Positions 38,563 through 64,000 of a DNA stretch of 64,000 nt are shown here, one piece after another (position 1 is the stretch's first letter; each line of letters starts with the position of its first letter). The notes under the pieces are model-generated. The model searched no databases. It was not told the origin of the DNA and saw only the letters and a list, made by a program, of their open reading frames with translations. The position numbers were made by a program, and so were the translations under genes. The DNA comes from an uncultured Planctomycetaceae bacterium (lineage in GTDB: Bacteria; Planctomycetota; Planctomycetia; Pirellulales; Pirellulaceae): NCBI GenBank assembly GCA_937967665.1, contig CALBSZ010000696.1, positions 194-64,193 of the forward strand. The letters run 5' to 3'.

Positions 38563-41500
38563 ATGCCACGAAGCCTGTCCAAGCAATTACGTCATCGCCA
38601 GAACGTGCGGCGCCTGCGATCCCTCCGACAAAGCCTGCAAATGGAATCCCTGGAAGCCCGTATGCTGTTGACCGCCTATGCTGATGCCGTCCTGGCGGAC
38701 AACCCGTTGGCCTTCTTTCAGTTTGACGAAGGCTCGGGAACGACGGCTAACGACTCGACGGCCAATGCAACGCATGGCAACATCGAAAACGCCACCTATT
38801 CACTCAATGGCGGAGGTCGCGGCGGTGACGCCGGTAACTACGCGCTGAGCTTCGACGGCAACGGAGACTCGGTTCGCGTGGTGGACGATGCTACCTCCGT
38901 GAACACGAATGCGTTCAATTCGATCACGGCCAACAACAAGGTCACGGTCGAATTCTGGCAATACGGGATCGGCCAGGCTCGCGACGACACAATCTTCGGC
39001 GGCTTCGACAGCAGCGGCAATCGTCAGGTCATGTCCCACCTGCCGTGGGGCAATAGCAATGTGTATTTCGATACGGGTGGTGGCGCGTCGACACCGAGCC
39101 AACGCATCAACACGGCCATGCCAGCGACGACCTTCAACGGGCGGTGGAATCATTGGGTCTTCATCAAGGACGGCAACAACAAGACGGTGTACAACAACGG
39201 TGTCGCCATACCGGCGCTGACGCAGTCCAATGCCACAGCAAACATCGGAGATATTCATCGCTTCTTTGTTGGAAGCGAAGCGAATTCGAGCGGCGGTATT
39301 ACCAACAGCTACCTTGGTTTGATCGATGATTTCGCCGTTTACGATAAGGCTTTATCCGCGGCGCAAGTGGCGGATCATTATCAGGCGAGTTTTGACGATG
39401 CCTTCGCCACGGACGAAGACACGGCGATCAGTGTCGATTCGTCTGTCGGCCTGCTGACCAACGATATGCCGCTGTATCGCTTCGAAAATGTCGCGTTGTC
39501 CAGCGCCGGCGGTGTCGCCTCACAATCCACCGATCGAGTCGGCAGCGGTTGCAATGTCGCGTCGTGCGCTATCGATGGCGATACCAACGGTAGTTTTGGC
39601 GGTAACTCCGTCACGCACACGCTTAACGAAACTCAACCTTGGTGGCAGGTGCAACTGCCGGCGATGCGTGACATCAATTCCATTAACTTGTTCAACCGCA
39701 CGGATTGCTGCAGCAACCGCCTGGACAACTTCCGCGTCTCCATCTGGCAGGGAGACCCGAATAGTGGCGGTGTCGAACAGTTCGGCCGCGATTTCTCATT
39801 CCCCGGCGGGCCGGGAACTTCTCTGTCGCTGGACGTCCCCAACTTTGTCAAAGGCAACTACGTTCGCGTGCAGTTGGCTAACGACGGGGAGAGCGAACCG
39901 CTGTCTTTGGCGGAAGTGCAGGTCTTTGCCGCGGCGCATGAAGTCGCTTCTGCCCAGGGCATGTCGTTGGGCGGCAGTACGACGGCCCGCGGCGACGGCT
40001 CGGTGACCGTCACAACCGACAAGGGTGGTTCGCTGACAATCACTGATGACGGCGGCTTTGACTATGATCCTTCCGTATCGTCAACGTTAAACACTCTTCC
40101 CGCCGGCGCCACGGATACCGACACATTCACCTATACCTACACCGATGGCACGTCCAGCCGTACGGCGACCGTCACGCTGACGATAACCGGTGTGAATGAC
40201 GCGCCTAATGCTGTGGACGACCCCAATGGCGGACTGCCCAATGCGGCATACACGACCACTGAAGACGCCGTGCTCAACGTTCCCGACGGCCCCGACGACG
40301 TGCTGGCCAACGACACGGACCCCGACACAGGCGATTCCATCAACCTTGTCACCTTCGACAGTACCAGCGTCAACGGCGCGGCGGTTGTCGTCAATCCTGA
40401 TGGCAGTTTCTCTTACGACCCGTCCGGTTCTGCGACGATCCAGACGCTTGACCAAGGTCAACCGCTGACGGATACCTTCACCTACACCATCACGGACTCG
40501 CTGGTACCGGCCAATGGTCGTTTCATCCGGGTCCGGAACAACGGCCCCGTAGATCGTTTGCTTCACATCGGTGAAATCGAAGCGTTTGCCCCAGGCGTGA
40601 CTCCAGCCGCCAACTTCGACGGGACCAACGATCTGGCGTTGAGTTCCAAAGGGGCTACGGTCGAATCGACCGTAGGGGGTGGCGGACATGGAAACCCGAA
40701 CGCCACCATCGACGGCAGTGAACAAACGGGTGGCTCGACCTGGACCAAACAGGCCGTCGGAACGGAAATTGTCATTGACTTGGGCGGATCGTTTGACATC
40801 GAACGCGTCCGCGTGCACCAGCGCAATGACAGTTGTTGCCAGGACCGCCTGATGGACTTCACCGTTTCCTTACTCGCCGACGACGGTTCCGGGAATCCAG
40901 GTGCTGTCGTACAGAGCGCCAGCTATCCCGGCCAGCCACCCACCAACTCGTTCGGTGAAGTCGCGCTGGATCCGGTGCCCTCGGGCGCCTTGCAAGTCGC
41001 CACGGTCAGCATTGCTGTCAACGGAGTCAATGATACCCCGAATCCGGCGGACGACGTGAACGACATCACCGAGTTGTCCGACGATACGGTCACCGTGAAC
41101 ACCGTCAGCGGTGACCTGTTCAGCAACGATACCGACGTAGACGATCCGGCAAGCTCCTTCAGCCTGGTACAAGTCAATGCGGACACCAGCGGAAACACAG
41201 TGGGGCTTTACGGCACGTTAACCTGGTCGCCCAACACCAACGGCGACGGAACCTACACGTATGCCCTGGACGATAGCAACGCGGCTGTGCAAGCGCTCGC
41301 CCCGGGGCAGACTCTCACGGACACGTTCACCTATACATTAAGCGACAATCATAGTGACGGCAGCGGCAGCAACAATCCACTTACCAACACCGCGAACCTG
41401 GTGATTACCATCAAGGGCGCTAACGATTCGCCGAATGCCGAGGACGATGCGGCCGATGTCATTGAAGACACCATGGTGACGACCGCAGGAAACGTCATTT

Positions 41501-45465: not shown

Positions 45466-46380
45466 GTGAATGTTAAGCGGTCTTCCCGGGTTCATCCGGG
45501 AGCGAGTGGTTTCACGTTAGTCGAGTTGCTGGTGGTAATCGCGATCATCGGCATCCTGGTCGCCTTGTTACTGCCGGCGGTGCAGGCCGCCCGCGAATCG
45601 GCGCGGCGCACAACGTGTTCCAACAACCTCAAGCAGCTGGGGCTGGCGGTCCACGAATACCACGACGCCTTTCGCCGCGTGCCGTCGAGTTTTGATTGGC
45701 TGGGAAATCAGCGGCGCGGCTGGATCGTGGGCATCCTGCCGTTCATCGAACAAGACGCTCTGTTCGCCACGCTGTCGGAGATCCATTTTCAGTTGCCCGA
45801 CCCCAAAGCCGCGCCGGTGAGGACCGCCGTCATCGACACCTTGATCTGTCCCACGGATGGCCGCACCGGCAAGTCCGGCACGCCTAATCGCATCACCACC
45901 AAACAGTTTCAGTGGGTGGGAACCGAAATGGCCACCACGAACTACAAGGGAGTGATCGGGGACCCCAACATGGGCAACGGCTGGCCGGGGATGGGCAGCC
46001 AGGACTTCCACAACACGTCTCCCAACAACGGCATGTTCTGGCGTTACAGCTTCCGGCACCCCGTGGCCTTCAACCAGGTGATCGACGGGCAATCCAACAC
46101 GCTGATGATCGGCGAAGACATCCCCTTTCACAACCACCATTCGGCCTGGGCGTATTCGAACGGCGACTATTCGAGTTGCCATGCGCCGTTGAACTACCTG
46201 CCCGATCCACCCGAGCCGGATCACTGGCCGCGCGTGATGGGGTTTCGCAGCTTTCATACCAGCATCGTCCAATTCTGCGCGGCCGACGGGTCGGTCCACG
46301 CGGTTCGCGACACCATCAATCACGACATCTATCGCGGCTTCTGTACTCGAGCTGGCGGGGAAGCGGGAAACCTGGAATGA
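45466..46380 (+). CDS. DUF1559 protein with prepilin-type N-terminal methylation domain
   Basis: GTG start. GFTLVELLVVIAIIGILVALLLPAVQAARESARRTTCSNNLKQLGLAVHEYHD is the canonical planctomycete DUF1559 N-terminus. The C-terminal H-X9-DG-like block is FCAADGSVHAV. Confidence 0.9.
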   Translation: MNVKRSSRVHPGASGFTLVELLVVIAIIGILVALLLPAVQAARESARRTTCSNNLKQLGLAVHEYHDAFRRVPSSFDWLGNQRRGWIVGILPFIEQDALFATLSEIHFQLPDPKAAPVRTAVIDTLICPTDGRTGKSGTPNRITTKQFQWVGTEMATTNYKGVIGDPNMGNGWPGMGSQDFHNTSPNNGMFWRYSFRHPVAFNQVIDGQSNTLMIGEDIPFHNHHSAWAYSNGDYSSCHAPLNYLPDPPEPDHWPRVMGFRSFHTSIVQFCAADGSVHAVRDTINHDIYRGFCTRAGGEAGNLE

Positions 46381-46907: not shown

Positions 46908-47004
46908 GCCGTCCCTGCCGTGGAACGGATTCTTCGAGTGCGATTGTTTTTTGTTCATCGCACCCGACGGGAACGCACGGTTCGCTGCAGACTGTCATGC
47001 GAAC

Positions 47005-48582
47005 ATGGAATTCAACAACATCATCGTTGTCGGCGGTGGTACCTCGGGATGGATGGCGGCGATCTCGCTGGCCAGCTACCTGCCGGACAAGAGGATTACC
47101 GTGATTGACCCGGCGAGCATCTCGCCGATCGGTGTCGGGGAAGCAACGACGGGCGTGGTGCAGCGGTTCGTCAATGACCCGCGGCACCGCCTCTCCCAAC
47201 AGGATCTGTTTCGACACTGCGATACGACACTGAAACTGGGCGTTTGGTACAAAGACTGGCAAGGCGCGGGGACCGATTATCCAACCCCCATCGATGCGCC
47301 GTTCCGCTGGTTCCCGCACACGTATGGCCAGGACGGCGAGGACTTCTACGCGCTGGCGGCGGCAGACGGCCAGGCGCTGGGCGATATCCAGATCCACGCC
47401 ATCTTGATGCGGTTGAACAAGACCGATCTCATCCGTCAACCCGACGGCGCGATCTCGGACCAGTACGCGGATCCTTCCTGCCATTTCGATGCGCTCCAGT
47501 TCGCGGCGTGGTTGAAACGCGTTGCACCGTCGCGGGAAAATATCGTCCATGTGGACGACGTGGTCACGTCGTTCGATCAGGATGCAACGACCGGCCATAT
47601 TCGCAGCGTCACGACGGAGCAAGGTCAAACGTTCGCGGGCGATTTCTTTCTCGACTGCACCGGCTTTCGCCGTCAATTGCTGCAACCGGCCTACACCCCC
47701 GCCTGGATCGACTATTCCAGGCACATCCGAGTCGATTCGGCAATCCCCTTTTTTACGCCGCACGATGACGCCGCCGATATCCCCGTATTCACCGCGGCGC
47801 AAGCCCTGCGTCATGGTTGGATGTGGCGGTTGCCTACCCAGTCGCGGATGGGCAACGGTTACGTCTATTCATCCAGTTATGTCAGCGACGAAAACGCGGT
47901 AAGGGAGCTCCAGCAAGCCGGCTTCGACGTCGGCGAAACGCCGCGCATCATCAGGTTCCAGCCGGGACGCTTCAAATCGCAGTGGCAAGGCAATGTCTGC
48001 GCCCTGGGACTGGCTGGCGGGTTCCTCGAACCGCTGGAAGCGACGACCATTCATATTACGTCGGTGCAGATCAAGGCGCTCGCGGAATTGTATCTGCCTT
48101 TCTATACTTCAGCAGCCGCGGCCGTGTTCGCCCGCGATTTCAACCGGCTGATGCAGTCAATGTATGACGATTTCGTGGACTTCATCAGCATCCACTACCA
48201 CGCCGGCCGTGAAGACTCGGAATTCTGGCGAGACTATCAGCGCGACGACTCGATCACGGCGACGAATCTCGAGCGTCGGGAAAAGTGGCAATACCGTTTT
48301 CCCGTCCGCGAGGACCTGACGCCGATCAACACCAGCCGCCTGCACCTGGTGGCCGGTATGCCCGTTTGGATGCCCACACTGTCGGGACTCGGCTACCTGC
48401 AACCGCGCCAGGCGCAGCAGTTCTGCCGAACGTCCCCGTTCCCAACGCAAGCCCAGGAAAACGCGCAACGCTACCTGAGGATGCGCGAAGTCATTTGCCG
48501 GAATCCCGTGTCACATCGGGATGCGATTGCGTACCTTCGCGGCGAATCACGCGGCACGCCGGCGGCCGCGCCGATGAACTGA
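47005..48582 (+). CDS. Flavin-dependent (tryptophan-type) halogenase family protein
   Basis: Start MEFNNIIVVGGGTSGWMAA (GxGxxG). IGVGEAT; Lys in CDTTLKLGVW aligns to RebH K79; GWMWRLP (WxWxIP-type); GFLEPLEATT (EPLE Glu). Confidence 0.85.
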   Translation: MEFNNIIVVGGGTSGWMAAISLASYLPDKRITVIDPASISPIGVGEATTGVVQRFVNDPRHRLSQQDLFRHCDTTLKLGVWYKDWQGAGTDYPTPIDAPFRWFPHTYGQDGEDFYALAAADGQALGDIQIHAILMRLNKTDLIRQPDGAISDQYADPSCHFDALQFAAWLKRVAPSRENIVHVDDVVTSFDQDATTGHIRSVTTEQGQTFAGDFFLDCTGFRRQLLQPAYTPAWIDYSRHIRVDSAIPFFTPHDDAADIPVFTAAQALRHGWMWRLPTQSRMGNGYVYSSSYVSDENAVRELQQAGFDVGETPRIIRFQPGRFKSQWQGNVCALGLAGGFLEPLEATTIHITSVQIKALAELYLPFYTSAAAAVFARDFNRLMQSMYDDFVDFISIHYHAGREDSEFWRDYQRDDSITATNLERREKWQYRFPVREDLTPINTSRLHLVAGMPVWMPTLSGLGYLQPRQAQQFCRTSPFPTQAQENAQRYLRMREVICRNPVSHRDAIAYLRGESRGTPAAAPMN

Positions 48583-48861: not shown

Positions 48862-50312
48862 ATACGCATCAAGTTAAGAAAAACTGCTCTTCGCGAAAAG
48901 GCGGAAGCTCCGCCAGAATTGAGGGTTGTATCAAAAAACAATCCTGGGAGAAGGAGCTTCCGCATGAGTATGATAGCAAAGGTGGCTGCCGCGTTGCAGA
49001 GCGTTTTCGGTGCGTGTGCAGAGATTGCTGCTGAGGAATCAAAAGTTATTCAGAGACGGCGAAAATTTACTCCGCAATCCTTAGCACAGGTGTTCGTGTT
49101 GGCGTTGCTTCAGAATCCGAGAGCCAACAGTGAGGATATGGCGAGCATGGCGGCCGCGAGTGGCATCGAGGTCTCTCATCAAGCGGTCGAGCAACGCTAT
49201 TCGCTGCGACTCGTGGAGTTCTTCCGGGAGTTGTTCCAGCAGATGACGAAGCAAGTCGTGTCCTCGGATACCGCTTTGGCTAAGCTCTTGGAACGTTTTA
49301 CTGAGGTCATTGTGATCGACAGCAGCGTGATCACCTTGCCAGACAGCCAACAGGAAAACTTTCGCGGCTGTGGCGGAAGTTACGAAGGTGGCAAGTCGGC
49401 TTTGAAACTTCAAACCGAACTGGAGCTTCGTGGGGGAGAACTCCGTTGTGTTCAGATCGAGCAAGGGCGCTCTCCCGATGGTGCTAGCGATCGTCAACAC
49501 GTCGCTTTTGCGCCGGGTTCGTTGCGCCTCGCCGACTTGGGATATTTCAACCTTCCTGTGCTGAAAAGGATCGCTGCCTCGAAAGCCTTCTTCCTCACCC
49601 GGTTGCCGCATCACACGAAAATCTATTTCGCAGCCAAAAAACACGACGTGGTGGCTTGGCTTAAATCGCAGGGCCGAATGCTGGTCGATACGTGGATTGA
49701 AATTGGCTCCGAAGCTCGCGTTCAATGTCGCTTAATCGCGTGGCGAGTTCCCGAGGAAGTCGCGAACCGCCGCCGTCAGAAGCTGATCGAAAAGACGCGT
49801 AGCAAGACAGGACGGGCTCCCACGGCCGAGTCGCTGGCCTCATGTGATTGGGAACTCTTGGTCACCAATCTTCCCGAAGATCAGCTGGGCGTCAAAGAAG
49901 CCGTTGTGCTGTATCGCTCCCGTTGGCAAATCGAATTGCTGTTTAAACGTTGGAAGTCACTCTGCTTGATTGATGAGTTAGACGGCCGCAACGATGTCGT
50001 GACGATGGTGAGGTTCTGGGCTCGCCTGTGCGGGGTGCTCATACAGCATTGGCTAACGGTCGGTGCGGCTTGGTCGGATGCGCTTCACTTAAGTTTCACG
50101 AAAGTGGCCAAGCTAGTGCGAAAGTTTGCGAAGGACCTTGCTATCGCCCTCTCCTCAGCTGGAGACGTGGAGCTGATTATTGAGCGATTCTGCACGATGG
50201 CTCGCACCGGATGTCGACGGAACAAACGCAGGAAACACCCCGGAACCATTCAGTTATTGAGAAACCCGGAATTGCTCGACTACACTTTAATCGGCTTAAC
50301 TTGATGCGTATG
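48861..50312 (+). mobile_element. IS4-family insertion sequence (~1.45 kb) with 18-bp perfect terminal inverted repeats
   Basis: IRL CATACGCATCAAGTTAAG (48861-48878) and IRR CTTAACTTGATGCGTATG (50295-50312) are exact reverse complements. It carries a single DDE transposase ORF whose stop lies inside IRR. Confidence 0.9.
48964..50304 (+). CDS. IS4-family DDE transposase
   Basis: Start MSMIAKV with AGGAG upstream. VIVIDSS (D1) and LRLADLGYF (D2). YRSRWQIELLFKRWK fits the Y-x2-R-x3-E-x6-K signature exactly. Confidence 0.9.
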   Translation: MSMIAKVAAALQSVFGACAEIAAEESKVIQRRRKFTPQSLAQVFVLALLQNPRANSEDMASMAAASGIEVSHQAVEQRYSLRLVEFFRELFQQMTKQVVSSDTALAKLLERFTEVIVIDSSVITLPDSQQENFRGCGGSYEGGKSALKLQTELELRGGELRCVQIEQGRSPDGASDRQHVAFAPGSLRLADLGYFNLPVLKRIAASKAFFLTRLPHHTKIYFAAKKHDVVAWLKSQGRMLVDTWIEIGSEARVQCRLIAWRVPEEVANRRRQKLIEKTRSKTGRAPTAESLASCDWELLVTNLPEDQLGVKEAVVLYRSRWQIELLFKRWKSLCLIDELDGRNDVVTMVRFWARLCGVLIQHWLTVGAAWSDALHLSFTKVAKLVRKFAKDLAIALSSAGDVELIIERFCTMARTGCRRNKRRKHPGTIQLLRNPELLDYTLIGLT

Positions 50313-50404: not shown

Positions 50405-51541
50405 CTAGGAGTGCGACGCCGTCGGCAGGTCCGCTGTCGCCGAATCGGGTCTGGTCAGCTGGCCGAATACGGCTTCCATCTGATTGCGGCGAGCGGGCGA
50501 CCACCAGTCGAAAAACGCCTGGCGCGACGTTTCGAGTAGTTGCTGCTCGGCACACAGCGTGCGTTCCAGGTACTTCACCTCTTTCGGCTTGTCCGCTTCG
50601 CGCAACCAGCGCTGCAGGCGTCGGACGGCCGTCGCATGGTCATTGATTTTCCCCAGCTTGTCCTGCATCTCGGACAGGCAGGGATAGAGCGACGCGCGCA
50701 GCTGCTCCGGAAACGCCGCGGCCAGCAATTCCATCGCGTAACGAAGCTTCTTGCCCTGGATACGAAACTGGTGCAAGTTGTCGTGGTCCGTGAAATCGGC
50801 CCGGCCGGCGATCAGGAAGGCATCGATGTACGACTGCAACTGCAGCGCCGACCAGGGTCCGAACTGGAGCGGCGAGGCGGCCGGTTCGCCGCGCCAGCGC
50901 GACCGCTTGACGAGCTTGCGAACGCGCCGGGGAAACCGCTTTTTGTACATCAACCGCCGATAAACTTTTCGGATTGATCGCTGTGCCCGCCGCCGGTCCG
51001 CGCGCACGCGCTTGAGTAGCCGCGCCGCCCCGGCGTCTCGCTTTTCAGATTTCAGGCGCAGGATACAGACATCGTCATCGCGAGACTCGCTGGTAGCGCG
51101 GAGGATGCGTTTGAGTTGTCTTAGGATCCACCGCGCGCGTCGGCGCGGCACGAAGTCGCCATACAATTCGACGGCTGCCTGGGCACGGCGGCTCCAGACA
51201 CGCAGTTGATGCACGTACTCGACGTTCTGTTTCGAACGCGTCGCCGCCAATCGCAGATACTTTTGCAGCGGCGACAGGCGGCTCAGCAAACTCTGCCGAA
51301 CGACGTCGTCGACCGGATCGGTCGGCGAAACTTCGATCCATTTGACAGGTTGCGGCACGTTTCGACCTCGTCGTCCAATCAAGGATGTACTGTGAAGCAA
51401 CGAAGCCAGCCGGCCCGTGCACTCCTGTATTAGGCCATTGTGAAGGCCGCCGGGCAAGACGCAATAAGGTTCCTGTTCTAGAAGCCCCTGTAGCCCCACG
51501 CCCCGCGCGGTTTCGGGTTTCGCCGAGTCGACTCGCGTCAA
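50405..51541 (-). CDS. CHAD domain protein
   Basis: Two CHAD-type helical blocks with conserved His/Arg: VHQLRVWSRRAQAAVELYGDF and LHQFRIQGKKLRYAMELLAAAF. The start codon is uncertain. Confidence 0.75.
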   Translation of the reverse strand: MTRVDSAKPETARGVGLQGLLEQEPYCVLPGGLHNGLIQECTGRLASLLHSTSLIGRRGRNVPQPVKWIEVSPTDPVDDVVRQSLLSRLSPLQKYLRLAATRSKQNVEYVHQLRVWSRRAQAAVELYGDFVPRRRARWILRQLKRILRATSESRDDDVCILRLKSEKRDAGAARLLKRVRADRRRAQRSIRKVYRRLMYKKRFPRRVRKLVKRSRWRGEPAASPLQFGPWSALQLQSYIDAFLIAGRADFTDHDNLHQFRIQGKKLRYAMELLAAAFPEQLRASLYPCLSEMQDKLGKINDHATAVRRLQRWLREADKPKEVKYLERTLCAEQQLLETSRQAFFDWWSPARRNQMEAVFGQLTRPDSATADLPTASHS

Positions 51542-54349: not shown

Positions 54350-54910
54350 AATCGCAACGGAAATCCTTGCCGCTGCAAGAACTTAGCAAAACCACACCGG
54401 TGGAAACAAGACGAATCGCTGCCGTCGTCACGATAAGATGCCGCGGCTTGCTTGCCTCACGCGGCAGCTACGCCGCCTTTCGCCCCCGCAGCGCCCGTCT
54501 TGGCCCCGCTATGGGGTAGCGGATTCCTATGGCTCGTGTTCCGAGACGAAGCCGTTTTGTTCAGAGTTCGCGACATTTCCTCGCAATAGGAACATTCATG
54601 GCCAACAAACCTGCCATTTGATTGCAATCCACAAAATCAGTTACTAAAGTATGCATTAGGCGCTTGAAGTCGTCGGAATCGAACCGGGATTTGCGTGTTC
54701 GCAAACGTTGTACTGTCTTCCCGCGTTCGACGGCGACTCACGCTCCTCTCTTCGGGACAGAGACGTAGCGAGGCGGTCATTCGATCCTTTTCCTGAACGA
54801 ATGCAGTTGCGTCCCAAAAAGACGGTAACGGTTGGAGACACGGTGAAACAGGGCTGCACGAGCAGTTCCTTATTTTTCGCTGTGCGCATACCACATTTGG
54901 AGAGTCACTC

Positions 54911-57900
54911 ATGACGAAGCGAAGACAGCTGTCCCGACGTCGCGCACGCAGGCAGCAACAGCGTGATTCCCGGCGAGTCCTTGTGGAATCGCTTGAAGCC
55001 CGGCAGATGCTGGCGGTCATCGCCTGCAACAACGGGACGAACTTGGGTGACCTGACGCTGACGGAAGATACGACGATCGACAATCAATCGGGCACGTGCC
55101 TGATCGGCAACGTCGACATGGGTAACTTTAGTCTGATCGTCGATGGTGACGGCGACACGACCATCTCCGGCAACCTGACCGGAAACGCCGCCGCCGGAAA
55201 CACGCTCAACAATTTCGACGCGCTCGGCACGGGCGATTTTTCTTTCACTGCCGATTCACAAACGTTCGACGCGCGACTCGACGACGACGGCACCGACTCC
55301 TGGCTGCTGGTCGGTCGCGGCCGCGACGGCTGGGAATTCGACGCGGACGGACCTGGGGGAGCACTGGCCGCGGTCAATCAGAATCTCGGCACACCAGCCG
55401 CTTTCACCCCTGCCGCCTACGACGACGCGATTATCAACGGTTTGCTTGCACAGATTGGCGTTGACCTGACCAACGTGGAAATCCGCCTGAAGCGGGCCGC
55501 GAACACAGCGGGAACCGAGTACCAGGAAGTTCGCTGGAATCCAACAACACAAACGACCTGGACTTGGGATTTCGATGCCGGAGCCAGCGGCTACGCGGTA
55601 TCTCACGAAGTCGGCGCGTCGGTACTCGGCGGCGCGTTTACCGACGCCACCAGCCAGACGCGTGATACGTTAAGTGCGGGCGGAGGCAATAACCACGAAC
55701 GCGTCTTCACCTGGTCGTGGGGCGGCCACGGCGGCCGACAGGGGTTCAGTTATGGGGGTTCGGTACAGGGCACCGACAACAACAGCCCCACGACGTTTCT
55801 CTGGGAAATCGGCAACGAGAATCACGCCATTCCCTACACCGAAGTCTATATCCGCAGCACCGGTGCGCGCGGGGCGGCCAATCACCTGATCAAGGAAGGC
55901 ATCGGCTCGCTCACGCTGCAGGGAAGCAACACCTACACCGGCGAAACCCTGATCAAAGCCGGGACGGTAGTGGCCGCTGCCGACATGGCATTGGGCGCGA
56001 CGACCACGAATACGCAAGTTCATCACGGAGCGGTTTTGGAATTGTCCGGCGGCGTGAACCTTCCCGAGCAGCTCGAAGTGACAGGGCAGGGCGAAGGCAA
56101 CGGCGTCATTGTCAGTTCCAGCGGTTCCAACGCGATTTCAGGAGACGTCGTTGTTGCCGGTCCGAGGACCTCGGTTACGACCGCTGGCGCTGTGACCGGT
56201 GGCGATCCGGGTGAAGGACTCGACATGTCCGGCGATTTCCACTACGCCGTCAACGCGCTCGGCGTCGGAGGCATGCAGGTCGGCGACGCCTTATTCACCA
56301 ACCAGGCGGGTGAGCCGAACGTTACCATTACTTCCAATCAAGCGGCAGCAAACTGGGACAACGCTTCTGATTTCGGATCCTCGGCCAACGACGCGGCGTT
56401 GAACACCATCATGCGTGACATCCGTTGGAGTTCGAACCCGACGCCGCTGGGAATCACTCTGAATGGTCTCACGATCGGCACGAAGTACAAATTCCAAGGG
56501 CTGTTCCAGGAACGCTGTTGCAATCGCGGCTGGGATGTGATTGTCGACGGACAGAAAGTGCTGCAAGACTTCAGCCCGAACGCCATCCAGGGTGGCGACT
56601 ATGTCAATACCGGCGCGGTCCTGACGCACGAGTTTACGGCGTCCGCCGAATCAGTACAAATCACGTTCGACGGCACGGCGACGGCGTTCCCAGACAAAAA
56701 TCCGATCCTCATGGGCCTTACGGTCGAGGACCTGGGCGAATCGAGTATCGTGCTGTTTGCTGCCGACAACGGCGCGGATTTGGAAATCAGCGGCAATGTG
56801 GATCTCGGTACTTCGGACCTGGTGGTTGGCGGTGCCGGCAGCACCACCATCGCCGGCGACATCGCGGGTGCGGTGACAGGAAACAATTTGAGTTCGCTGG
56901 AATCCTTGCATTCAGGTGAGCACTCATTTACCGGTGACGCACAGACGTTCGACGGACTGATCGACAATGACGGCCTGCATTCCTGGCTCCTGGTGGGCCG
57001 CGGCCGGGAAGGCTGGGAATTCGATGCTGACGGTCAGGGAACTCTCGCCGATGTGACGCAGGATCTCGGCACTCCAAACGCGTTCGCGCCGGCGGCTTAC
57101 AGCAACGCCATCATCAACGATCTCATCACGCAAGCAGGTATCGACCTGACCGACGTCGAAATCCGGCTCAAGCGGGCCGCCAATACTTCCGGTACCGCGT
57201 ATCAGGAAGTGCGCTGGAAGCCACTGACGCAACCTACCTGGACCTGGGCGTTCGATCCGGGCTATGCCGTGGCCCTGGACGTGCAGCCATCGGTACTTGG
57301 CGCGGCGTTCTCGGATCCCACCAGCGAAACCCGCGACGGCTTTTCGTCAGGGGCGGGAAACAACTACCAGCGCGTCTTCACCTGGGCCTGGGGTGGGCAC
57401 AACAACCAGCGGGGCTTTAGTTACGGCGGCAGCGTCGCCGGTACGGACAACAACAATCCAAGTACGTTCCTGTGGGAATTTACTACGGAAAACCACGCCA
57501 TGCCCTACACGGAAGTCTACGTCCGCAGCCTTGGAACGCAACGGGGTACCAATCGCGTTACTAAGGTGGATGACGGCACGCTCACCTTGTCGGGCGACAA
57601 TTCCTATCGCGGCTTGACCGAAGTTCAAGAAGGGATCCTCGTCGCCGCGTCCGACAATGCGCTCGGAGATGTCGACGCGAACACCACCGTCTTCGACGGC
57701 GCCACCCTGGAACTGGCCGGCAATACCAGCATTCCCGAGCCGCTGACGGTGACCGGCGCCGGCGTGGCCGGCACCGGCGCCATCCTCAGCAGCAGCGGCA
57801 ACAATACGCTTACCGGAACCATCACTGCCCTGAGTCCCCAGCCTATGGCAACGACTAGTCGCGGCGCGGTGACGGGAGGTGATCCTGGTGAAGGTTTGGA

Positions 57901-60900
57901 TATGGAAGGAAACTTCCTGTACGCCGTCAATGCGCTCGGCGCGGGTGGCCAGCAGGTGGGCGATGCGCTGTTTACCGACCAAGCGGGCGAACCGAACGTC
58001 GTGATTTCGGCCAACGCCAACGCCGCGAACTGGGTGACAAGCACGTATGATTTAGGCACGTCAGCGAATGACACGGCTCTCGAAAGTGTCCTTCGTGATA
58101 TTCGTTACAGCGTGGCGCCGCAGGTGGTTTCCATCGACATCCAAGGCCTGACCATCGGCAACCAATACAAGTTCCAAGGTCTTTTCCAGGAACGCTGCTG
58201 CGACCGCGGCTGGGATGTCCTTGTCGACGGCCAGTTAGTGAGCGAAGACTTCAGCCCTCTCGCGATTCAAGGGGGCGATCAAAACAATACCGCCGCCGTG
58301 CTGACGCACGAATTCACGGCGGCCTCCACATCCGTGAACATTGTCTTCGACGGTAATCCGACGGCATTCCCCGACAAGAACCCGATCCTGATGGGGTTGA
58401 CGGTCGAACAACTTGGTCCCTTCCAGCGTGACCTCGTTATCGGCAGCGACGGCGGCACGCTGAACATCAACGGCGACATCGAATTGCAGGACAACGTAGG
58501 ACTCGAGTTGACCGGATCGGCGGACACGATCGTCAACGGCATAATCTCGACCCCCGCGCCGACGTTGAACAACATCGGCGGCCTCGGAGCGGGCGAATTC
58601 TCGTTCACCGCGGATTCGCAGACATTCGACGCCCTGGTGGACGACGACGGCGAGGCGGCTTGGCTGCTAATCGGGCGCGGACGAAATGGCTGGCAGTTCG
58701 ATGCCGATGGCCCGGGCGGAAGCCTGGCCGCTGTCACACAAGGACTGGGCACACCCGCCGCGTTTACTCCCACGGCCTACAGCGACGCCATCATCAATGA
58801 CCTGCTGGCCCAAGCTGGGCTGGACCTCACGGATGTCGAAATCCGCTTGAAGCGGGCCGCCGATACGACCGGCGACTCGTACCAGGAAGTACGCTGGAAT
58901 CCGATCACGCAGTCATTCTGGACCTGGGATTTCGACGCGGGCAGCAATGGGTACGCCGTCTCGCATGAAGTCCGGCCTTCTGCGTTGGGCGGAGCCTTCA
59001 CGGATCTGACCAGCGAGACTCGCGATACCAATGCCGCGGGCTCGGCAAACAATCACGAACGTGTCTTCACCTGGTCGTGGAGCGGACACGGCGGCCAACA
59101 GGGCTTCAGCTACGGGCAGGATGTCGTCGGTACCGATGGCAACGACCCCAACACGTTCCTGTGGGAAATCGGTACGGAAAATCACCCGTTGCCCTACACG
59201 GAAGTCTATATCCGCGCGAGGGATGCCCTGGCGATTCCGGTTTCTCTTTCCAAAACGGGCAGCGGCACCGCAACGCTGGCGGGTAACAACACGTACCTCC
59301 TGCCGACCGACGTCATCGAAGGAACACTGGTCGCCGCCAGCGACAACGCGCTCGGCAGCACTTACGCGGACACGACCGTACGCGCGGGTGGCACACTGGC
59401 GTTGCCCGGCGGCGTCGACTTGCCAGAAAACATCCTCGTCAACGGCACGGGGAATGCCGGCGCAGGTGAGATCGTGAATACCGCCGGCACCAATACCTTG
59501 TACGGCGCAGTCACGCTGATCGGCGCGCCGCTACCTGGTTCCGCTACGACCGCGGGAGTAGTGACCGGCGGCGATCCGGGCGAGGGACTCGATATGGACG
59601 GGAATTTCCTCTATGCGGTCAACGCACTTGGCGCTGGAGGCCAACAAGTCGGCGATGCGTTGTTCACCGACGAAGCGGGCGAACCCAACGTCGTGATCAC
59701 GGCGAATGCGAACGTCGCCAACTGGGATAACGCATCCAACTTTGGTTCGTCAGCCAACGACGTGGCACTTAACAGTATCATGCGCGACATTCGCTACAGC
59801 GTGGCGCCACAAGTCGTTTCGATCGACATCAACGGGCTCACCGTGGGCAACCAGTACAAGTTCCAGGGACTGTTCCAGGAACGCTGTTGCGCGAGGGGCT
59901 GGGATGTCATTGTCGACGGCAACCTCGTGCTGGAAGATTTCAGTCCGAACCTCATTCAAAGCGGCGACTACGTCAATACGGGCGCCGTATTGACGCACGA
60001 ATTCACAGCGACCTCCAGTTCCGTGAACATCGTCTTCAACGGCAATCCAACGACGTTCGCCGACAAGAATCCCATCTTGATGGGGCTGACCGTCGAGGAT
60101 CAGGGTGCCACTCAGCGTCCGGTGAGCATCGGCAGCGCGGCGGGCGAATTGATTGTCAACGGTGAATTGAAACTCGTGGACGCCGACGCCGAGATCACGG
60201 GAGCGGGCGATGTCACGGTCAACGGTACGATCACTTCGCCGGCCCCCAGCCTCAGCAATCTCAGCGCCTTGGCGACCGGTAACTACTCCTTTACGGCCGA
60301 CAGCCAGACATTCGAAGCACTGGTCGATAACGACGGTACGGACACGTGGCTGCTGATTGGTCGTGGCCGCAACGGTTGGGAATTTGACGCCGATGGACCC
60401 GCATCGGTGCCCGATGAAGTCAACGATGGTCTGGGAACTTCCGCCGCCTTCGTACCGAAAGCGTTCGACAGCGCGATCATCAACGATCTGCTCGCCACCG
60501 CGGGGCTCGACATGAGCGACGTCGAAGTACGCCTCCGCCGCGCCGGCGACAGCGCCGGCACGGGAGACTACCAGGAGGTCCGCTGGCGCGATTTTACTGG
60601 CAACGGTAATCAATGGACCTGGGATTTTGACGGCACTCCCTACGGTGTGACCATGCAGCACTTGAACGTCGTTGCGGGACTGCCCGGAAGCCAGGCCTAT
60701 ACCACGACCGGCGGAAACACCGACGATTTCTACGGACTAGGGTCCGGACGAAACGATGCGACGCGCGTCTTTACCTTTGCCTGGAGTGGCCACGGTGATC
60801 AGCAGGGGTTCAGCTACGGCCTGACGGTCGGGGGCGTCAACAACAACGATCCCAACACGTTCCTCTGGGAAATTGGCAACGAAGATCACGCCATTCCCTA

Positions 60901-63900
60901 TACCGAAGTGTATCTCCGCAGTCGCACGTCTCCCACCCAGTTGCCCGATAATCTGCTCAAGACCGGTGCCGGTACGCTGACGCTGAACAGCGCGAATACC
61001 TATAACGGGCTCACCGAAATCGAAGGCGGCACGGTCGTGGTAACCGACGAAGGCGCCCTGGGGAACCCCAACGTGGGAACCACGGTGGACGGCGGGACGC
61101 TGGCTCTATCCGGCGGGATTAACCTCAGCGCGGAAGACGTGACGATTACGGGCACCGGGGCGGCGACGCAGCCGGGCGCCTTGGTCGGCATCAGCGGGAA
61201 CAACGAGTTCAGTGGACAACTGTCCGTGACCGGCACGACGGCCGGCGTCGGATCGGTAGACGATCCGGGCACCGGGTTTGTCGACACGCTCACCATCAGT
61301 TCGTCGATTGACTTGCAGGCCGGGTTAGTGGTCGATGGCGATGGGGACACGGTCGTCACAGGCAACATTATCGAAACGCTGGGGGTCCACCAGTTGGAAG
61401 CCTTGGGGGCCGGCGAATTCGCCTTTACCGCTGCTGGCCAGGATTTCCTCGGCACGGTCGATAACGATGGCACGAACTCCTGGCTGCTCGTGGGACGCGG
61501 TCGTGAAGGCTGGCAATTCGACGCGGACGGTCAAGGCAACATCGCTGATGTGAACCAGAATCTCGGCACCAGCGCCGCCTTCGCTCCGGCTGCGTATAGC
61601 GAAGCCATTGTCAACGAATTGATCGCGCGTGCAGGCATCGATATGAGTGATATCGAAATACGCCTGAGTCGCGCTGCTGACACGTCGGGAATCAATCAAT
61701 ACCAAGAAGGTCGCTTTCGCAACCTGGCCACCAGCGACTGGCGTTGGGACTTTGACGCTGGAACTGGAGCTGGCGCACTAACGGGCACTTGGGAGATCAC
61801 CAATAACGTGCTCGGCGGTCCGTACCTCGATACCACCACGGGAACGCGTGACACTTTTGAAAACCCGCCGAATAACAACGACGGACGCCGGGTCTTCACC
61901 TGGGCCTGGAGTGGACATGGCGACGTGCGCGGCTTCAGCTACGGCAGCAGCGTGAACGGTGTGGCCAACAATGACCCGAACACGTTCTTATGGGAGATTG
62001 CCAACGAAAACCATGCCATCCCGTATACCGAGGTCTACATCCGCAGCCTCGGCACACAGGCACCCGTGAACGGTATTACGAAACTTGGCGCCGGTACCCT
62101 GACCGTCACCGGTAACAACACATACAACGGCGATACGATCGTATCGGAGGGCGTCTTGGTCGCCAACACCAGCGGCCCGAATTCGGCAACCGGCGGCGGC
62201 AACGTCGTTGTGCAGAATGGCGGGTCTCTGGCAGGGGCGGGCAACGTCAGCGGTGCCGTGACGGCCGCATCCGGCGGAACCGTCGCGCCGGGTGATACGG
62301 TTGGTGCGATTTCCACAGGCGACCTCACATTGCAAGCAGGAGCCAACTACGAGTTCGAGCTGGCTTCCGATACGCTTCATGATACGACCAATGTGTCCGG
62401 CTCCGTGGATGTCACCGGCGCCAACCTGGTCGGCTCCGATACGTCGGCTTCCGGCGTGACGGGAACCTTTGTCATCATCAACAACGACGGCACCGATCCG
62501 GTCGTGGGCGAGTTCGCCGGAGTTCCCCAAGCGACGGCCGTGACGATCGGGGCGCAGAGCTTCTTTATCGATTACCAGTACGACTCCGGCACCAGTACAC
62601 CGGCTGCGGGCAATGATATCGCGCTCGTCTCGAACAGCGCCCCGGATGCCGTGGACGACCCGAATGAAACCACCGACGAAGCGTCAGCCATGAATATCGA
62701 CGTGATGGACAACGATTCCGATCCCGATGAGGCGATCGGCGACACGATCTTCCTGCAAGGAGTGTCTACGCTGGGGACCCTCGGCAGCGTGACCGTCAAC
62801 GATGGCACCACTCCCGCCGACGCCTCGGACGACACCGTCGATTACGATCCCAATGGACAGCTTGAATACCTCGGCGTCGGTGACAGCGCCACCGACACGT
62901 TCACCTACACGATCAGCGACCGCGGCGGACTCACCGACATGGCCACCGTCACCGTGACGATCAGCGGGCTCAATGACCCGCCAGTGCTCAGCGTGCCCGG
63001 TCCGCAAACAGTGGCGGAAGGGGCTCTCTTGGACCTGAGCGGGCTGGTCAGCTTCACCGACCTGGATCTCACCGACAGCCATACGATCACGATCGACTGG
63101 GGGGACGGCAGCGCCGTGGAAAACGGCAGCGTCACGGAAACGATGGGCAGTGCTCCGGCCAATCCGGACACGTTTGCTTTGACGAACTCGCACACCTTCG
63201 CCGACGATGGCAGCTACACCGTCACCGTCACCGTCGACGACGGCGAAGCACTCGGTTCGGTGACCGAAACGATTAGTGTTACCGTGACCAACGCGCTGCC
63301 TGCCCTGACGCTGGCCGCAGCGGCCCAGAACGAAGGCACGGCGTTTGCCATCACGGACCTTGGTGTGATTACCGACGCCGGTTTCCGGAATCCCGCCAAC
63401 CCCAACGGCGCCTCGGACGAAACGTTTACCTATTCCATCGACTGGGGCGACTTCTCCGCGGCTGCGACGGGAATGGCCACCATTGACGACATCGGCGGGA
63501 TGGGCGATTTGACCGACGCGTCATTCGATGGCAGCCATTCATACGACAACAACGGCGTCTATACCGTGACCGTCCGCGTGGCGGACGACGACATGACCGG
63601 GGACTTCACGGGCGGTGATGACGGCGTCGACTTCGTCGAACAGACGATCTCGCTCACGGTCAACAACCTGCCGCCGACGGGTACGATCAGCGGTCCCACG
63701 GATGCGTTGCCGTCTCAGACGTTGACGTTCACGTTCAGCGGCGACGACCCGTCGCCGGTGGACGACACCAACCTCTCCTGTTCGGTCAACTGGGGCGACG
63801 GCAATAGCGATGCGTTGGGCAATTGCTTCACACCGGTGGTACTCGATCACGAATATAACGGGCTTGGTATCTTCACCGTTTCCCTCACCATCACCGACGA

Positions 63901-64000
63901 CACCGTCACACAACTGGTCGACACGCACACGGTGAACGTCACCAACAATCCACGCGTGGACGGCCAGGGCAACCTGCTGGTTCCCGATTCCTTGATGGGC
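54911..64000 (+). CDS. Giant modular surface protein (>3030 aa, 3' end beyond the window): ESLEAR leader, 5x novel ~205-aa domain, PATR beta-helix repeats, 3x CBM-like domain, cadherin/VCBS-like and PKD-like domains
   Basis: Absent from the ORF track because it is open-ended. I translated the frame from ATG 54911 (GGAG upstream) to base 64000 (9090 nt, 3030 codons) with no stop. All minus-strand ORFs listed here are antisense shadows. The N-terminus is MTKRRQLSRRRARRQQQRDSRRVLVESLEARQMLAV. Confidence 0.9.
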   Translation, partial: MTKRRQLSRRRARRQQQRDSRRVLVESLEARQMLAVIACNNGTNLGDLTLTEDTTIDNQSGTCLIGNVDMGNFSLIVDGDGDTTISGNLTGNAAAGNTLNNFDALGTGDFSFTADSQTFDARLDDDGTDSWLLVGRGRDGWEFDADGPGGALAAVNQNLGTPAAFTPAAYDDAIINGLLAQIGVDLTNVEIRLKRAANTAGTEYQEVRWNPTTQTTWTWDFDAGASGYAVSHEVGASVLGGAFTDATSQTRDTLSAGGGNNHERVFTWSWGGHGGRQGFSYGGSVQGTDNNSPTTFLWEIGNENHAIPYTEVYIRSTGARGAANHLIKEGIGSLTLQGSNTYTGETLIKAGTVVAAADMALGATTTNTQVHHGAVLELSGGVNLPEQLEVTGQGEGNGVIVSSSGSNAISGDVVVAGPRTSVTTAGAVTGGDPGEGLDMSGDFHYAVNALGVGGMQVGDALFTNQAGEPNVTITSNQAAANWDNASDFGSSANDAALNTIMRDIRWSSNPTPLGITLNGLTIGTKYKFQGLFQERCCNRGWDVIVDGQKVLQDFSPNAIQGGDYVNTGAVLTHEFTASAESVQITFDGTATAFPDKNPILMGLTVEDLGESSIVLFAADNGADLEISGNVDLGTSDLVVGGAGSTTIAGDIAGAVTGNNLSSLESLHSGEHSFTGDAQTFDGLIDNDGLHSWLLVGRGREGWEFDADGQGTLADVTQDLGTPNAFAPAAYSNAIINDLITQAGIDLTDVEIRLKRAANTSGTAYQEVRWKPLTQPTWTWAFDPGYAVALDVQPSVLGAAFSDPTSETRDGFSSGAGNNYQRVFTWAWGGHNNQRGFSYGGSVAGTDNNNPSTFLWEFTTENHAMPYTEVYVRSLGTQRGTNRVTKVDDGTLTLSGDNSYRGLTEVQEGILVAASDNALGDVDANTTVFDGATLELAGNTSIPEPLTVTGAGVAGTGAILSSSGNNTLTGTITALSPQPMATTSRGAVTGGDPGEGLDMEGNFLYAVNALGAGGQQVGDALFTDQAGEPNVVISANANAANWVTSTYDLGTSANDTALESVLRDIRYSVAPQVVSIDIQGLTIGNQYKFQGLFQERCCDRGWDVLVDGQLVSEDFSPLAIQGGDQNNTAAVLTHEFTAASTSVNIVFDGNPTAFPDKNPILMGLTVEQLGPFQRDLVIGSDGGTLNINGDIELQDNVGLELTGSADTIVNGIISTPAPTLNNIGGLGAGEFSFTADSQTFDALVDDDGEAAWLLIGRGRNGWQFDADGPGGSLAAVTQGLGTPAAFTPTAYSDAIINDLLAQAGLDLTDVEIRLKRAADTTGDSYQEVRWNPITQSFWTWDFDAGSNGYAVSHEVRPSALGGAFTDLTSETRDTNAAGSANNHERVFTWSWSGHGGQQGFSYGQDVVGTDGNDPNTFLWEIGTENHPLPYTEVYIRARDALAIPVSLSKTGSGTATLAGNNTYLLPTDVIEGTLVAASDNALGSTYADTTVRAGGTLALPGGVDLPENILVNGTGNAGAGEIVNTAGTNTLYGAVTLIGAPLPGSATTAGVVTGGDPGEGLDMDGNFLYAVNALGAGGQQVGDALFTDEAGEPNVVITANANVANWDNASNFGSSANDVALNSIMRDIRYSVAPQVVSIDINGLTVGNQYKFQGLFQERCCARGWDVIVDGNLVLEDFSPNLIQSGDYVNTGAVLTHEFTATSSSVNIVFNGNPTTFADKNPILMGLTVEDQGATQRPVSIGSAAGELIVNGELKLVDADAEITGAGDVTVNGTITSPAPSLSNLSALATGNYSFTADSQTFEALVDNDGTDTWLLIGRGRNGWEFDADGPASVPDEVNDGLGTSAAFVPKAFDSAIINDLLATAGLDMSDVEVRLRRAGDSAGTGDYQEVRWRDFTGNGNQWTWDFDGTPYGVTMQHLNVVAGLPGSQAYTTTGGNTDDFYGLGSGRNDATRVFTFAWSGHGDQQGFSYGLTVGGVNNNDPNTFLWEIGNEDHAIPYTEVYLRSRTSPTQLPDNLLKTGAGTLTLNSANTYNGLTEIEGGTVVVTDEGALGNPNVGTTVDGGTLALSGGINLSAEDVTITGTGAATQPGALVGISGNNEFSGQLSVTGTTAGVGSVDDPGTGFVDTLTISSSIDLQAGLVVDGDGDTVVTGNIIETLGVHQLEALGAGEFAFTAAGQDFLGTVDNDGTNSWLLVGRGREGWQFDADGQGNIADVNQNLGTSAAFAPAAYSEAIVNELIARAGIDMSDIEIRLSRAADTSGINQYQEGRFRNLATSDWRWDFDAGTGAGALTGTWEITNNVLGGPYLDTTTGTRDTFENPPNNNDGRRVFTWAWSGHGDVRGFSYGSSVNGVANNDPNTFLWEIANENHAIPYTEVYIRSLGTQAPVNGITKLGAGTLTVTGNNTYNGDTIVSEGVLVANTSGPNSATGGGNVVVQNGGSLAGAGNVSGAVTAASGGTVAPGDTVGAISTGDLTLQAGANYEFELASDTLHDTTNVSGSVDVTGANLVGSDTSASGVTGTFVIINNDGTDPVVGEFAGVPQATAVTIGAQSFFIDYQYDSGTSTPAAGNDIALVSNSAPDAVDDPNETTDEASAMNIDVMDNDSDPDEAIGDTIFLQGVSTLGTLGSVTVNDGTTPADASDDTVDYDPNGQLEYLGVGDSATDTFTYTISDRGGLTDMATVTVTISGLNDPPVLSVPGPQTVAEGALLDLSGLVSFTDLDLTDSHTITIDWGDGSAVENGSVTETMGSAPANPDTFALTNSHTFADDGSYTVTVTVDDGEALGSVTETISVTVTNALPALTLAAAAQNEGTAFAITDLGVITDAGFRNPANPNGASDETFTYSIDWGDFSAAATGMATIDDIGGMGDLTDASFDGSHSYDNNGVYTVTVRVADDDMTGDFTGGDDGVDFVEQTISLTVNNLPPTGTISGPTDALPSQTLTFTFSGDDPSPVDDTNLSCSVNWGDGNSDALGNCFTPVVLDHEYNGLGIFTVSLTITDDTVTQLVDTHTVNVTNNPRVDGQGNLLVPDSLMG
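55238..62047 (+). repeat. Five tandem coding modules (periods 1689, 1671, 1686, 1134 nt) inside the giant ORF
   Basis: Novel-domain copies at 55238-55858, 56927-57529, 58598-59218, 60284-60922 and 61418-62047. All are in frame, each starting (F/Y/H)(S/A)FT and ending PYTEVY(I/V/L)R(S/A). CBM-like copies at 56192-56734, 57869-58414 and 59561-60103. Confidence 0.9.

Follow-up and report, generated by a model that had tools for sequence, protein, structure and literature searches.

Layout of the giant open reading frame

The stretch of DNA analysed here (the window) comprises 64,000 nucleotides of contig CALBSZ010000696.1 from an uncultured Planctomycetaceae bacterium, and its 3′ end is occupied by a giant open reading frame (ORF) on the plus strand (Table 1). 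The ORF starts with an ATG at 54911 in frame 1, which lies 6 nt downstream of the Shine-Dalgarno-like GGAGAG at 54899-54904, and continues for 3030 codons without a stop to the window end (64000). Because the source contig (65,658 bp) ends about 1.6 kb past the window, the assembly probably cuts the gene short too. On our best reading, the ORF product is the N-terminal part, at least 3030 residues long, of a giant protein that a planctomycete-like bacterium secretes or carries on its cell surface. Signs of a surface or extracellular location are a weak Planc_extracel-like N-terminus, PATR β-strand repeats, and Big_9 and PKD domains. The protein is built mainly from five copies of a domain of about 215 amino acids (aa), here called A, and three copies of a second domain, here called B.

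A tblastn search with the third copy of A (58577-59224) as the query found exactly five copies in the window and none elsewhere in it, with E values of 4e-75 to 4e-147. The other segments were 55223-55858 (E = 1.5e-110), 56906-57529 (E = 2e-93), 60269-60925 (E = 4e-75) and 61403-62047 (E = 5e-76). The five copies in an open-ended ORF that had been proposed from the sequence alone (the original prediction) were thus confirmed. Each copy is 212-222 aa long, and pairwise protein identity is 59-75%, with about 85 invariant columns. All motif blocks listed in the original prediction are present in the copies, but the block W-x-WDFD is not invariant, as copy 2 reads WTWAFD. The five copies are also not strictly tandem as had been described: copies 1-3 lie within a super-repeat of about 560 aa, composed of A, a PATR spacer, B and a linker, which occurs three times with 61-65% identity across the whole unit. 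Downstream come two A-PATR units, which are shorter, and then an immunoglobulin (Ig)-like stalk. The second repeated domain, B, had gone unmentioned. The PATR-like repeats reported after each copy were recovered as five stretches each by PF12951 (87.9 bits, cut-off 27) and TIGR02601 (95.7 bits, cut-off 19.85), one directly 3′ of every A copy.

At the DNA level, the A copies are 59-71% identical in pairwise comparison, differing at 29-41% of positions, and the longest exact word common to them is at most 19 nt. The proportion of synonymous differences (pS) is 0.65-0.77, so that synonymous sites are saturated, and the ratio of non-synonymous to synonymous substitution (dN/dS) is 0.09-0.24. Each A copy is clearly under purifying selection. 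In a neighbour-joining tree, copies 1-3 formed a clade, copy 4 paired with the second A copy of a protein from another organism (P0050), and copy 5 was more distant still. This grouping indicates that the duplications of A are of different ages and that some are older than speciation, in agreement with the original view of old duplications kept under selection.

Table 1 Coordinates of the giant ORF and its parts in the window
Feature	Position	Strand	Evidence and remarks
Giant ORF	54911..64000	+	3030 codons, open at window end; Shine-Dalgarno-like GGAGAG
N-terminal 'planctomycete extracellular' motif VLVESLEARQMLA	54971..55018	+	Pfam PF07595, weak (18.2 bits vs cut-off 25.5, E 0.002)
A copy 1, fibrinogen-related-like, aa 103-318	55217..55864	+	tblastn and copy alignment
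PATR β-helix spacer 1	55865..56161	+	Pfam PATR / TIGR02601; motif KEGIGSLTLQGSNTY at aa 328
B copy 1, malectin/CBM35-like β-sandwich, aa 418-623	56162..56779	+	tblastn, predicted fold
A copy 2, aa 664-875	56900..57535	+	tblastn and copy alignment
PATR β-helix spacer 2	57536..57838	+	Pfam PATR / TIGR02601; VTKVDDGTLTLSGDNSYRG
B copy 2, aa 977-1183	57839..58459	+	tblastn
A copy 3, aa 1223-1438, modelled copy	58577..59224	+	AlphaFold2 pLDDT 92.6, pTM 0.92; Foldseek
PATR β-helix spacer 3	59225..59530	+	Pfam PATR / TIGR02601
B copy 3, aa 1541-1746, modelled copy	59531..60148	+	AlphaFold2 pLDDT 88.2, pTM 0.86; Foldseek
A copy 4, older paralogue, aa 1785-2006	60263..60928	+	tblastn; neighbour-joining tree
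PATR β-helix spacer 4, no B domain	60929..61396	+	Pfam PATR
A copy 5, most divergent, aa 2163-2381	61397..62053	+	tblastn; neighbour-joining tree
PATR / autotransporter-passenger-like β-helix segment	62054..62632	+	Best PATR stretch aa 2389-2417; EprS-passenger-like aa 2389-2508
Ig-like stalk: Big_9/VCBS aa 2575-2683, PKD aa 2688-2792, further PKD-like repeats; cut by window end	62633..64000	+	Pfam Big_9 1.9e-10, PKD_4 3e-10; NCBIfam VCBS

On the opposite strand, between 55084 and 62530, the giant ORF faces many overlapping ORFs of 80-300 aa (e.g. 59750-60661, 303 aa). They are expected for DNA of 60% GC opposite a long gene and are without independent support.

Relationship of domain A to fibrinogen-related domains and intelectins

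Neither single copies nor a 37-sequence profile found any match for A in Pfam-A, NCBIfam or the PDB sequences, which agrees with the description of the domain as unassigned in the original prediction. The best match among PDB sequences, the calcium-channel alpha2delta subunit (E = 0.56), was taken as noise. We followed the proposed route of structure prediction and structural search. The AlphaFold2 model of copy 3, built from the 37-sequence alignment, had a high predicted local distance difference test score (pLDDT) and a high predicted template modelling score (pTM) (Table 1). In a Foldseek search of the PDB with this model, the top 16 matches were all fibrinogen-like domains, with E values of 1.4e-4 to 0.09 over 224-282 columns and probabilities of 0.57-1.0 (at least 0.8 in the top 14). 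These matches included ANGPTL3 (E = 1.4e-4, probability 1.0), FGL1, MFAP4, ANGPTL4, ANGPTL2, Ang1 and fibrinogen chains. A search of the viral BFVD library with the same model returned nothing at E ≤ 1e-3.

The N-terminal hallmark of fibrinogen-related domains (FReDs), C...YCD....GGGWT(V/I)(F/I)QRR with the disulfide of the A sub-domain, is not found in the window copies, which read F.A.VD(D/N)DG...WLL(V/I)GRGR and are without the cysteines. It is, however, carried by other members of the same family. These bridge members align over the whole of domain A (E = 1e-28 to 1e-40) and start with '...GxYxIDPDG...F.AYCDMTxDGGGWTLIGRGREGW'. Three of them, P0032, P0037 and P0042, matched the five-copy profile with E values of 9.5e-40, 5.7e-33 and 4.5e-28, at 86-90% query coverage and 38-40% identity. 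P0032 reached 28.6 bits against Pfam Fibrinogen_C (PF00147; gathering threshold 22), over profile positions 2-53 only, and both P0032 (77.8 bits) and P0042 (72.8 bits) passed NCBIfam NF040941 (cut-off 30). Among 178 A-family domains, CD....GGGW was found in 41, GGGW without the cysteine in 14 and neither in 121; all five window copies belong to the last group, with VD(D/N)DGxxxW in place of the hallmark and both cysteines lost. Judging from these alignments, the window subgroup has lost the YCDxxxxGGGW hallmark and the N-terminal disulfide, while a sister subgroup keeps the hallmark.

A profile of the hallmark-bearing subgroup matched intelectins best in the PDB (XEEL, E = 2.6e-12; hIntL-1, E = 2.7e-10; intelectin range to 6e-10), followed by FIBCD1, angiopoietins, tenascins, fibrinogen beta and gamma, tachylectin-5A, MFAP4 and ficolins, with only the first ~50 residues covered in every case. 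Further comparison by hhalign used a profile of 154 A domains and a profile of seven canonical FReDs. The template sequences were validated (hIntL-1, and the seven FReDs against PDB chains at about 2.3 bits per residue). Against the FReD profile, the A profile aligned with a probability of 93.2% (E = 3e-7) over 79 columns, up to the first helix, and the reversed-template control gave E = 0.56. Against the intelectin profile, the probability was 92.7% (E = 4.4e-7), and only the N-terminal ~45 residues were confidently aligned. With hIntL-1 and fibrinogen gamma as single-sequence templates, 43-57 N-terminal columns were aligned by default and 39-40 without realignment. At relaxed stringency the FReD alignment continued co-linearly to the end, at low confidence, and placed VEIRLKRA on LRVELED, NTRD on FSTxD and FLWE...PYTEVYIR on GIxW...YS...MKIRP. 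A closer kinship of A with intelectins, suggested by a resemblance of 'WSGHGxxxGFS' to the W288/Y297 box, was rejected, since that match had E = 0.58 and the confident alignment was N-terminal only.

Taken together, A is very probably homologous to FReDs, as a member of the FReD/intelectin superfamily that has diverged strongly and forms an uncurated bacterial family. The parallel to fibrinogen-related and intelectin domains drawn in the original prediction is supported by the bridge members, the hallmark-subgroup profile, the structural matches and hhalign with its reversed control, and the block order proposed there (GGGWT.QRR, LRV.L, MKIRP) was reproduced by the relaxed alignment. At the same time, the hhalign match to a described domain, the kind of hit that the original prediction had named as counting against novelty, lowers the claim from an unknown family to a diverged branch, as yet uncurated, of a superfamily already known. 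The window copies are not members of PF00147 or NF040941 in the strict hidden-Markov-model sense.

The bacterial A family, domain B and the genomic neighbourhood

A search of a 5.8-billion-cluster collection with the five-copy profile yielded 47 proteins, mostly secreted and of about 280 aa, with little beyond one A domain. The phyletic spread, whose examination had been proposed, was surveyed by a HMMER scan of 1.84 billion representative proteins, which gave 479 clusters at E ≤ 1e-3, of which 214 also reached E ≤ 1e-30. Genome loci with members of the family came from Planctomycetota (Pirellulales, Phycisphaerae), Verrucomicrobiota, Kiritimatiellia, Victivallales, Omnitrophota and Alpha-, Beta- and Gammaproteobacteria, and the best identity among the loci in species-representative genomes was 59%. 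Single A domains predominate: among 187 proteins, 176 carry one copy, nine carry two and one carries three, so that the window protein with five has the most. The family signature is W-L-L-V-G-R-G-R-x-G-W ... R-V-F-T-W-x-W-x-G-H ... G-F-S-Y-G ... P-Y-T-E-V-Y-x-R. A PEP-CTERM anchor was present in 15 of the 37 members scanned (32 homologues and the five window copies), in support of a surface or extracellular location. Outside the window, the hallmark-bearing P0037 has a C-terminal DUF7495 (66.9 bits), and other members join A to TSP3_bac repeats, CHRD, LamG, Big_5, cadherin-like or RTX modules, a wide shuffling in surface proteins. Many proteins of the hallmark subgroup have Ala/Pro-rich signal regions of high-GC type and 'SCWxIKQ...FYCDMTTDGGGWVLVGRGR', and look actinobacterial.

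Domain B is about 200 aa long, and its three copies are 69-76% identical. They have the motifs GGDPGEGLD, FQERCC and DxNPIL, and the adjacent cysteines of FQERCC possibly form a vicinal disulfide. Searches of Pfam, NCBIfam and the PDB sequences gave no match to B (best E = 0.79, a chitinase). Only seven homologues were found among 5.8e9 clusters, as small stand-alone proteins with PEP-CTERM-like tails, which likewise fit a surface or extracellular location. Foldseek with the model of copy 3 returned, at probability 1.0, the malectin-like domains of FERONIA, ANXUR1 and ANXUR2 (query template modelling score, TMq, 0.54-0.63), and also sugar-binding domains of Bacteroides beta-glucuronidases, carbohydrate-binding module (CBM) family 35 (CBM35; TMq 0.35-0.41) and CBM51. 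Domain B is therefore predicted, by the fold of its model, to be a malectin/CBM35-like β-sandwich.

The two domains recur together. In 11 further proteins of the A family, B follows A, and B was found near A (within about 2.6 kb, mostly downstream) at 11 of 45 genome loci, which came from Omnitrophota, Akkermansiaceae, other Verrucomicrobiia, Kiritimatiellia, Phycisphaera, Anatilimnocola and Pirellulaceae. A followed by B is thus a cassette conserved in evolution across phyla. The conserved order argues that both domains act on one target.

In the neighbourhood of the giant ORF, a second giant secreted, adhesin-like protein of 1836 aa is encoded about 11 kb upstream (38563-44073, plus strand), with LamG, F5/8 type C (NedA-like), bacterial cadherin-like, Big_9 and PKD modules and RTX Ca-binding repeats. 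A sulfatase (36520-38031, minus strand), a DUF1559 protein with an N-terminal methylation motif, a signature family of planctomycetes (45466-46380, plus strand), and an esterase were also found. These genes fit a planctomycete that uses polysaccharides, and the DUF1559 protein and the sulfatase, taken with the Planc_extracel-like N-terminus of the giant ORF, indicate a source within Planctomycetota. The genes directly upstream of the giant ORF, for a DDE transposase, a CHAD protein and a PhoU-domain Na/Pi cotransporter, have no evident functional link to it. The transposase ORF (DDE_Tnp_1, 48919-50304, plus strand, 461 aa) is flanked by a tryptophan-halogenase-like gene (46951-48582) and the CHAD-domain gene (50405-51541, minus strand), and may be an insertion sequence.

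Proposed function and comparison with known systems

FReD lectins (ficolins, tachylectin-5A (TL5A) and FIBCD1) and intelectins bind glycans through their C-terminal sub-domain, and malectin and CBM35 domains are carbohydrate binders. Our best reading of the giant protein, which we hold at a probability of roughly 55%, is a multivalent glycan-binding surface adhesin. A role of the whole protein as an adhesin or glycan-capture protein is rather likely, and for A itself the comparative evidence leads us to lean towards carbohydrate binding. In such an adhesin, five A and three B modules would be displayed along one polypeptide, with short rigid PATR β-helix segments between them and the Ig-like (Big_9/PKD) stalk carrying them, as 'lectins on a rod'. 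Ficolins, tachylectin-5A and intelectins reach multivalency via oligomerisation; here, avidity would come from repeats in one chain and not from oligomerisation. The ligand site of A is probably in its loop-rich C-terminal third, equivalent to the P sub-domain of FReDs, because most of the invariant aromatic and polar residues are found there. These residues are T148, D150, N158/159, R162, W168, H171, F177, F194, W196, E197, E201 and H203.

Several observations weigh against this reading. Significant sequence similarity between A and FReDs or intelectins is confined, in our profile comparisons, to the N-terminal ~50-80 residues: after removal of the N-terminal sub-domain, the remaining ~175 residues matched FReDs with E = 0.12 only (reversed control 0.52). 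The window ORF and the five A copies scored nothing for Pfam Fibrinogen_C, even at E ≤ 10, and had no NF040941 match in the NCBIfam search. The template modelling (TM) scores of the A model to FReDs were only 0.37-0.41, at a root-mean-square deviation of 8-9 Å, and no intelectin was among its Foldseek matches in the PDB. As to ligands, those of many animal FReDs (fibrinogen, angiopoietins, tenascins, FGL1) are proteins and not glycans. Where the low-confidence alignment places NTRD on (F)STxD, both positions of the Ca2+-ligand Asp residues (DxD) face N/A in copy 3. The intelectin ligand site consists of the Ca2+ ligands N260, E262 and E274 together with H263 and an aromatic box of W288 and Y297 (PMC12800186). 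The Ca2+/diol part of it (N260, E262, E274) was not recognisably conserved in the A alignments. Neither the Ca2+ and acetyl sites of FReDs nor the Ca2+/diol site of intelectins can be recognised as conserved in these alignments of A. Its specificity, if it is a lectin, is unreadable from its relatives. The C-terminus of the giant protein, and thus its mode of anchoring, lies beyond the window end. A search of the literature on bacterial FReDs, YCDxxxxGGGW proteins and planctomycete fibrinogen-like proteins found nothing relevant to the A family.

Alternatively, A could be FReD-like but serve protein-protein or matrix contacts, in aggregation or rosettes, in holdfast or S-layer assembly, or in binding of host or prey proteins. 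Its nearest structural matches are indeed protein-binding FReDs (ANGPTL3/4, FGL1, MFAP4, fibrinogen), the residues of the lectin-type Ca2+ and acetyl sites are not evidently kept, and the partner domains (cadherin-like, Big_9, PKD, TSP3, LamG) are typical of adhesion proteins generally. We nevertheless consider such contacts unlikely to be the function of A, because it is recurrently fused to a malectin/CBM35-like module, its putative site has many aromatic and polar residues, the sulfatase and esterase nearby point to polysaccharide use, and the stand-alone PEP-CTERM forms occur in exopolysaccharide-producing taxa.

It is considerably less probable that A is a catalytic domain that modifies or cleaves polysaccharides, with B as its appended CBM in the usual layout of carbohydrate-active enzymes. 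We know of no enzyme with the FReD fold, Pfam and NCBIfam gave no match of A to a catalytic family, a polypeptide that carries the same catalytic domain five times would be unusual, and B is absent from two of the five A copies and from most A-family members. These points stand against the conserved A-then-B order, the resemblance of B to the CBM35 and CBM51 modules attached to glycoside hydrolases, the invariant acidic and histidine residues of A (D150, E197, E201, H171, H203) and the very low dN/dS.

Equally doubtful is that A is not homologous to FReDs at all, its likeness being due to convergence, to a mosaic of a FReD-type N-terminal hairpin on an unrelated body, or to bias of the model. 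The C-terminal ~175 residues without significant similarity to FReDs or intelectins and the TM score of only about 0.4 would fit that explanation. Intelectins themselves, for their part, have only the N-terminal part in common with FReDs. Against it, all 16 top structural matches are FReDs with nearly the whole domain aligned, at the probabilities given above; the relaxed alignment is co-linear throughout, with the terminal strand PYTEVYIR on MKIRP; and no break separates the members that bear the hallmark from the others in the family (E = 1e-28 to 1e-40). An assembly artefact in a repetitive region, for which only the general risk of repeats in metagenome assemblies speaks, can be set aside, as the saturated synonymous sites, the low dN/dS, the 29-41% nucleotide differences and the lack of any exact word longer than 19 nt are not those of duplicated or collapsed sequence, and related proteins elsewhere carry two or three A copies.

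FReDs are usually treated as an animal innovation, known from clotting, innate-immune lectins and angiopoietins. A 2024 review, for instance, goes no further than to place them in all metazoan phyla (PMC11401434). Our analysis brings to light a family of about 480 clusters across several bacterial phyla; most of the members examined have lost the diagnostic motif, and Pfam and NCBIfam therefore do not see them. In planctomycetes and the other phyla concerned, giant modular proteins that resemble adhesins and contain unannotated modules are common. A model by NCBI curators already covers the N-terminal hallmark found in the sister subgroup, and the predicted fold belongs to a superfamily that is well known. 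What is new is the motif-less A subgroup, undetected by curated models, the definition of the family over its full length of about 215 aa, the five-copy arrangement, which is the largest in the family, and the conserved association of A with a malectin-like domain that is itself rare. With a curated model of A over its full length, hundreds of surface proteins and giant adhesins now labelled 'hypothetical' would receive an annotation. Both the conserved A-B cassette and the small PEP-CTERM forms that stand alone (~280 aa) are tractable, and could help to find the ligands and to learn how planctomycetes and verrucomicrobia become attached to surfaces rich in polysaccharides or harvest them. More tentatively, the 'GRGRxGW...PYTEVYxR' family might be an ancient, truly bacterial FReD/intelectin lineage with its own ligand site, not a recent import from animals, which together with B would form an unrecognised two-module glycan-recognition cassette for attachment or polysaccharide capture in bacteria of the Planctomycetes-Verrucomicrobia-Chlamydiae (PVC) group and Omnitrophota. 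If so, the FReD fold of animal immune lectins would have bacterial roots.

The closest known proteins are those of NF040941 (GGGWT_bact), which form one family with the window A domains over the whole ~215 aa and have GRGRxGW, RxFTWxWxxH, GFSYG and PYTEVYxR in common with them. However, the NF040941 model is only 46 residues long and covers the N-terminal hallmark, leaving the remaining ~170 residues of A without any curated model. Moreover, these proteins read YCDMTxDGGGW where the window subgroup reads (V/L)D(D/N)DGxxxW (consensus VDNDG), with both cysteines gone. A resembles animal FReDs (PF00147) in the best fold matches of its model, and has in common with them the alignable N-terminal hairpin, central strand and first helix (hhalign 93%) and, in the relaxed alignment, a co-linear block order, including the last strand back to the central sheet. 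In contrast to them, A is bacterial, has only 10-14% identity and a TM score of about 0.4 to them, is without disulfides and without recognisable Ca2+ (DxD) or acetyl-pocket residues, and has another, loop-rich C-terminal third in its ~215 aa. Animal FReDs oligomerise by coiled coils or collagen, whereas the window protein has repeats within one chain. For intelectins (hIntL-1, XEEL), the weak co-linear match of WSWSGHGGQQGFS to FDWSGYGTHVGYS, which spans the W288/Y297 box, is not significant; intelectins are about 100 residues longer than A (a fold of ~290 aa) and do not occur among its structural matches. Domain B has the β-sandwich fold of malectin-like, CBM35 and CBM51 domains in its model, but no match to them at the sequence level and motifs of its own. 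Finally, the PATR repeats are common to the window protein and to PATR giant surface proteins and autotransporter passengers, and one segment resembles the passenger of the EprS autotransporter, whereas in the window protein PATR forms short spacers between globular modules.

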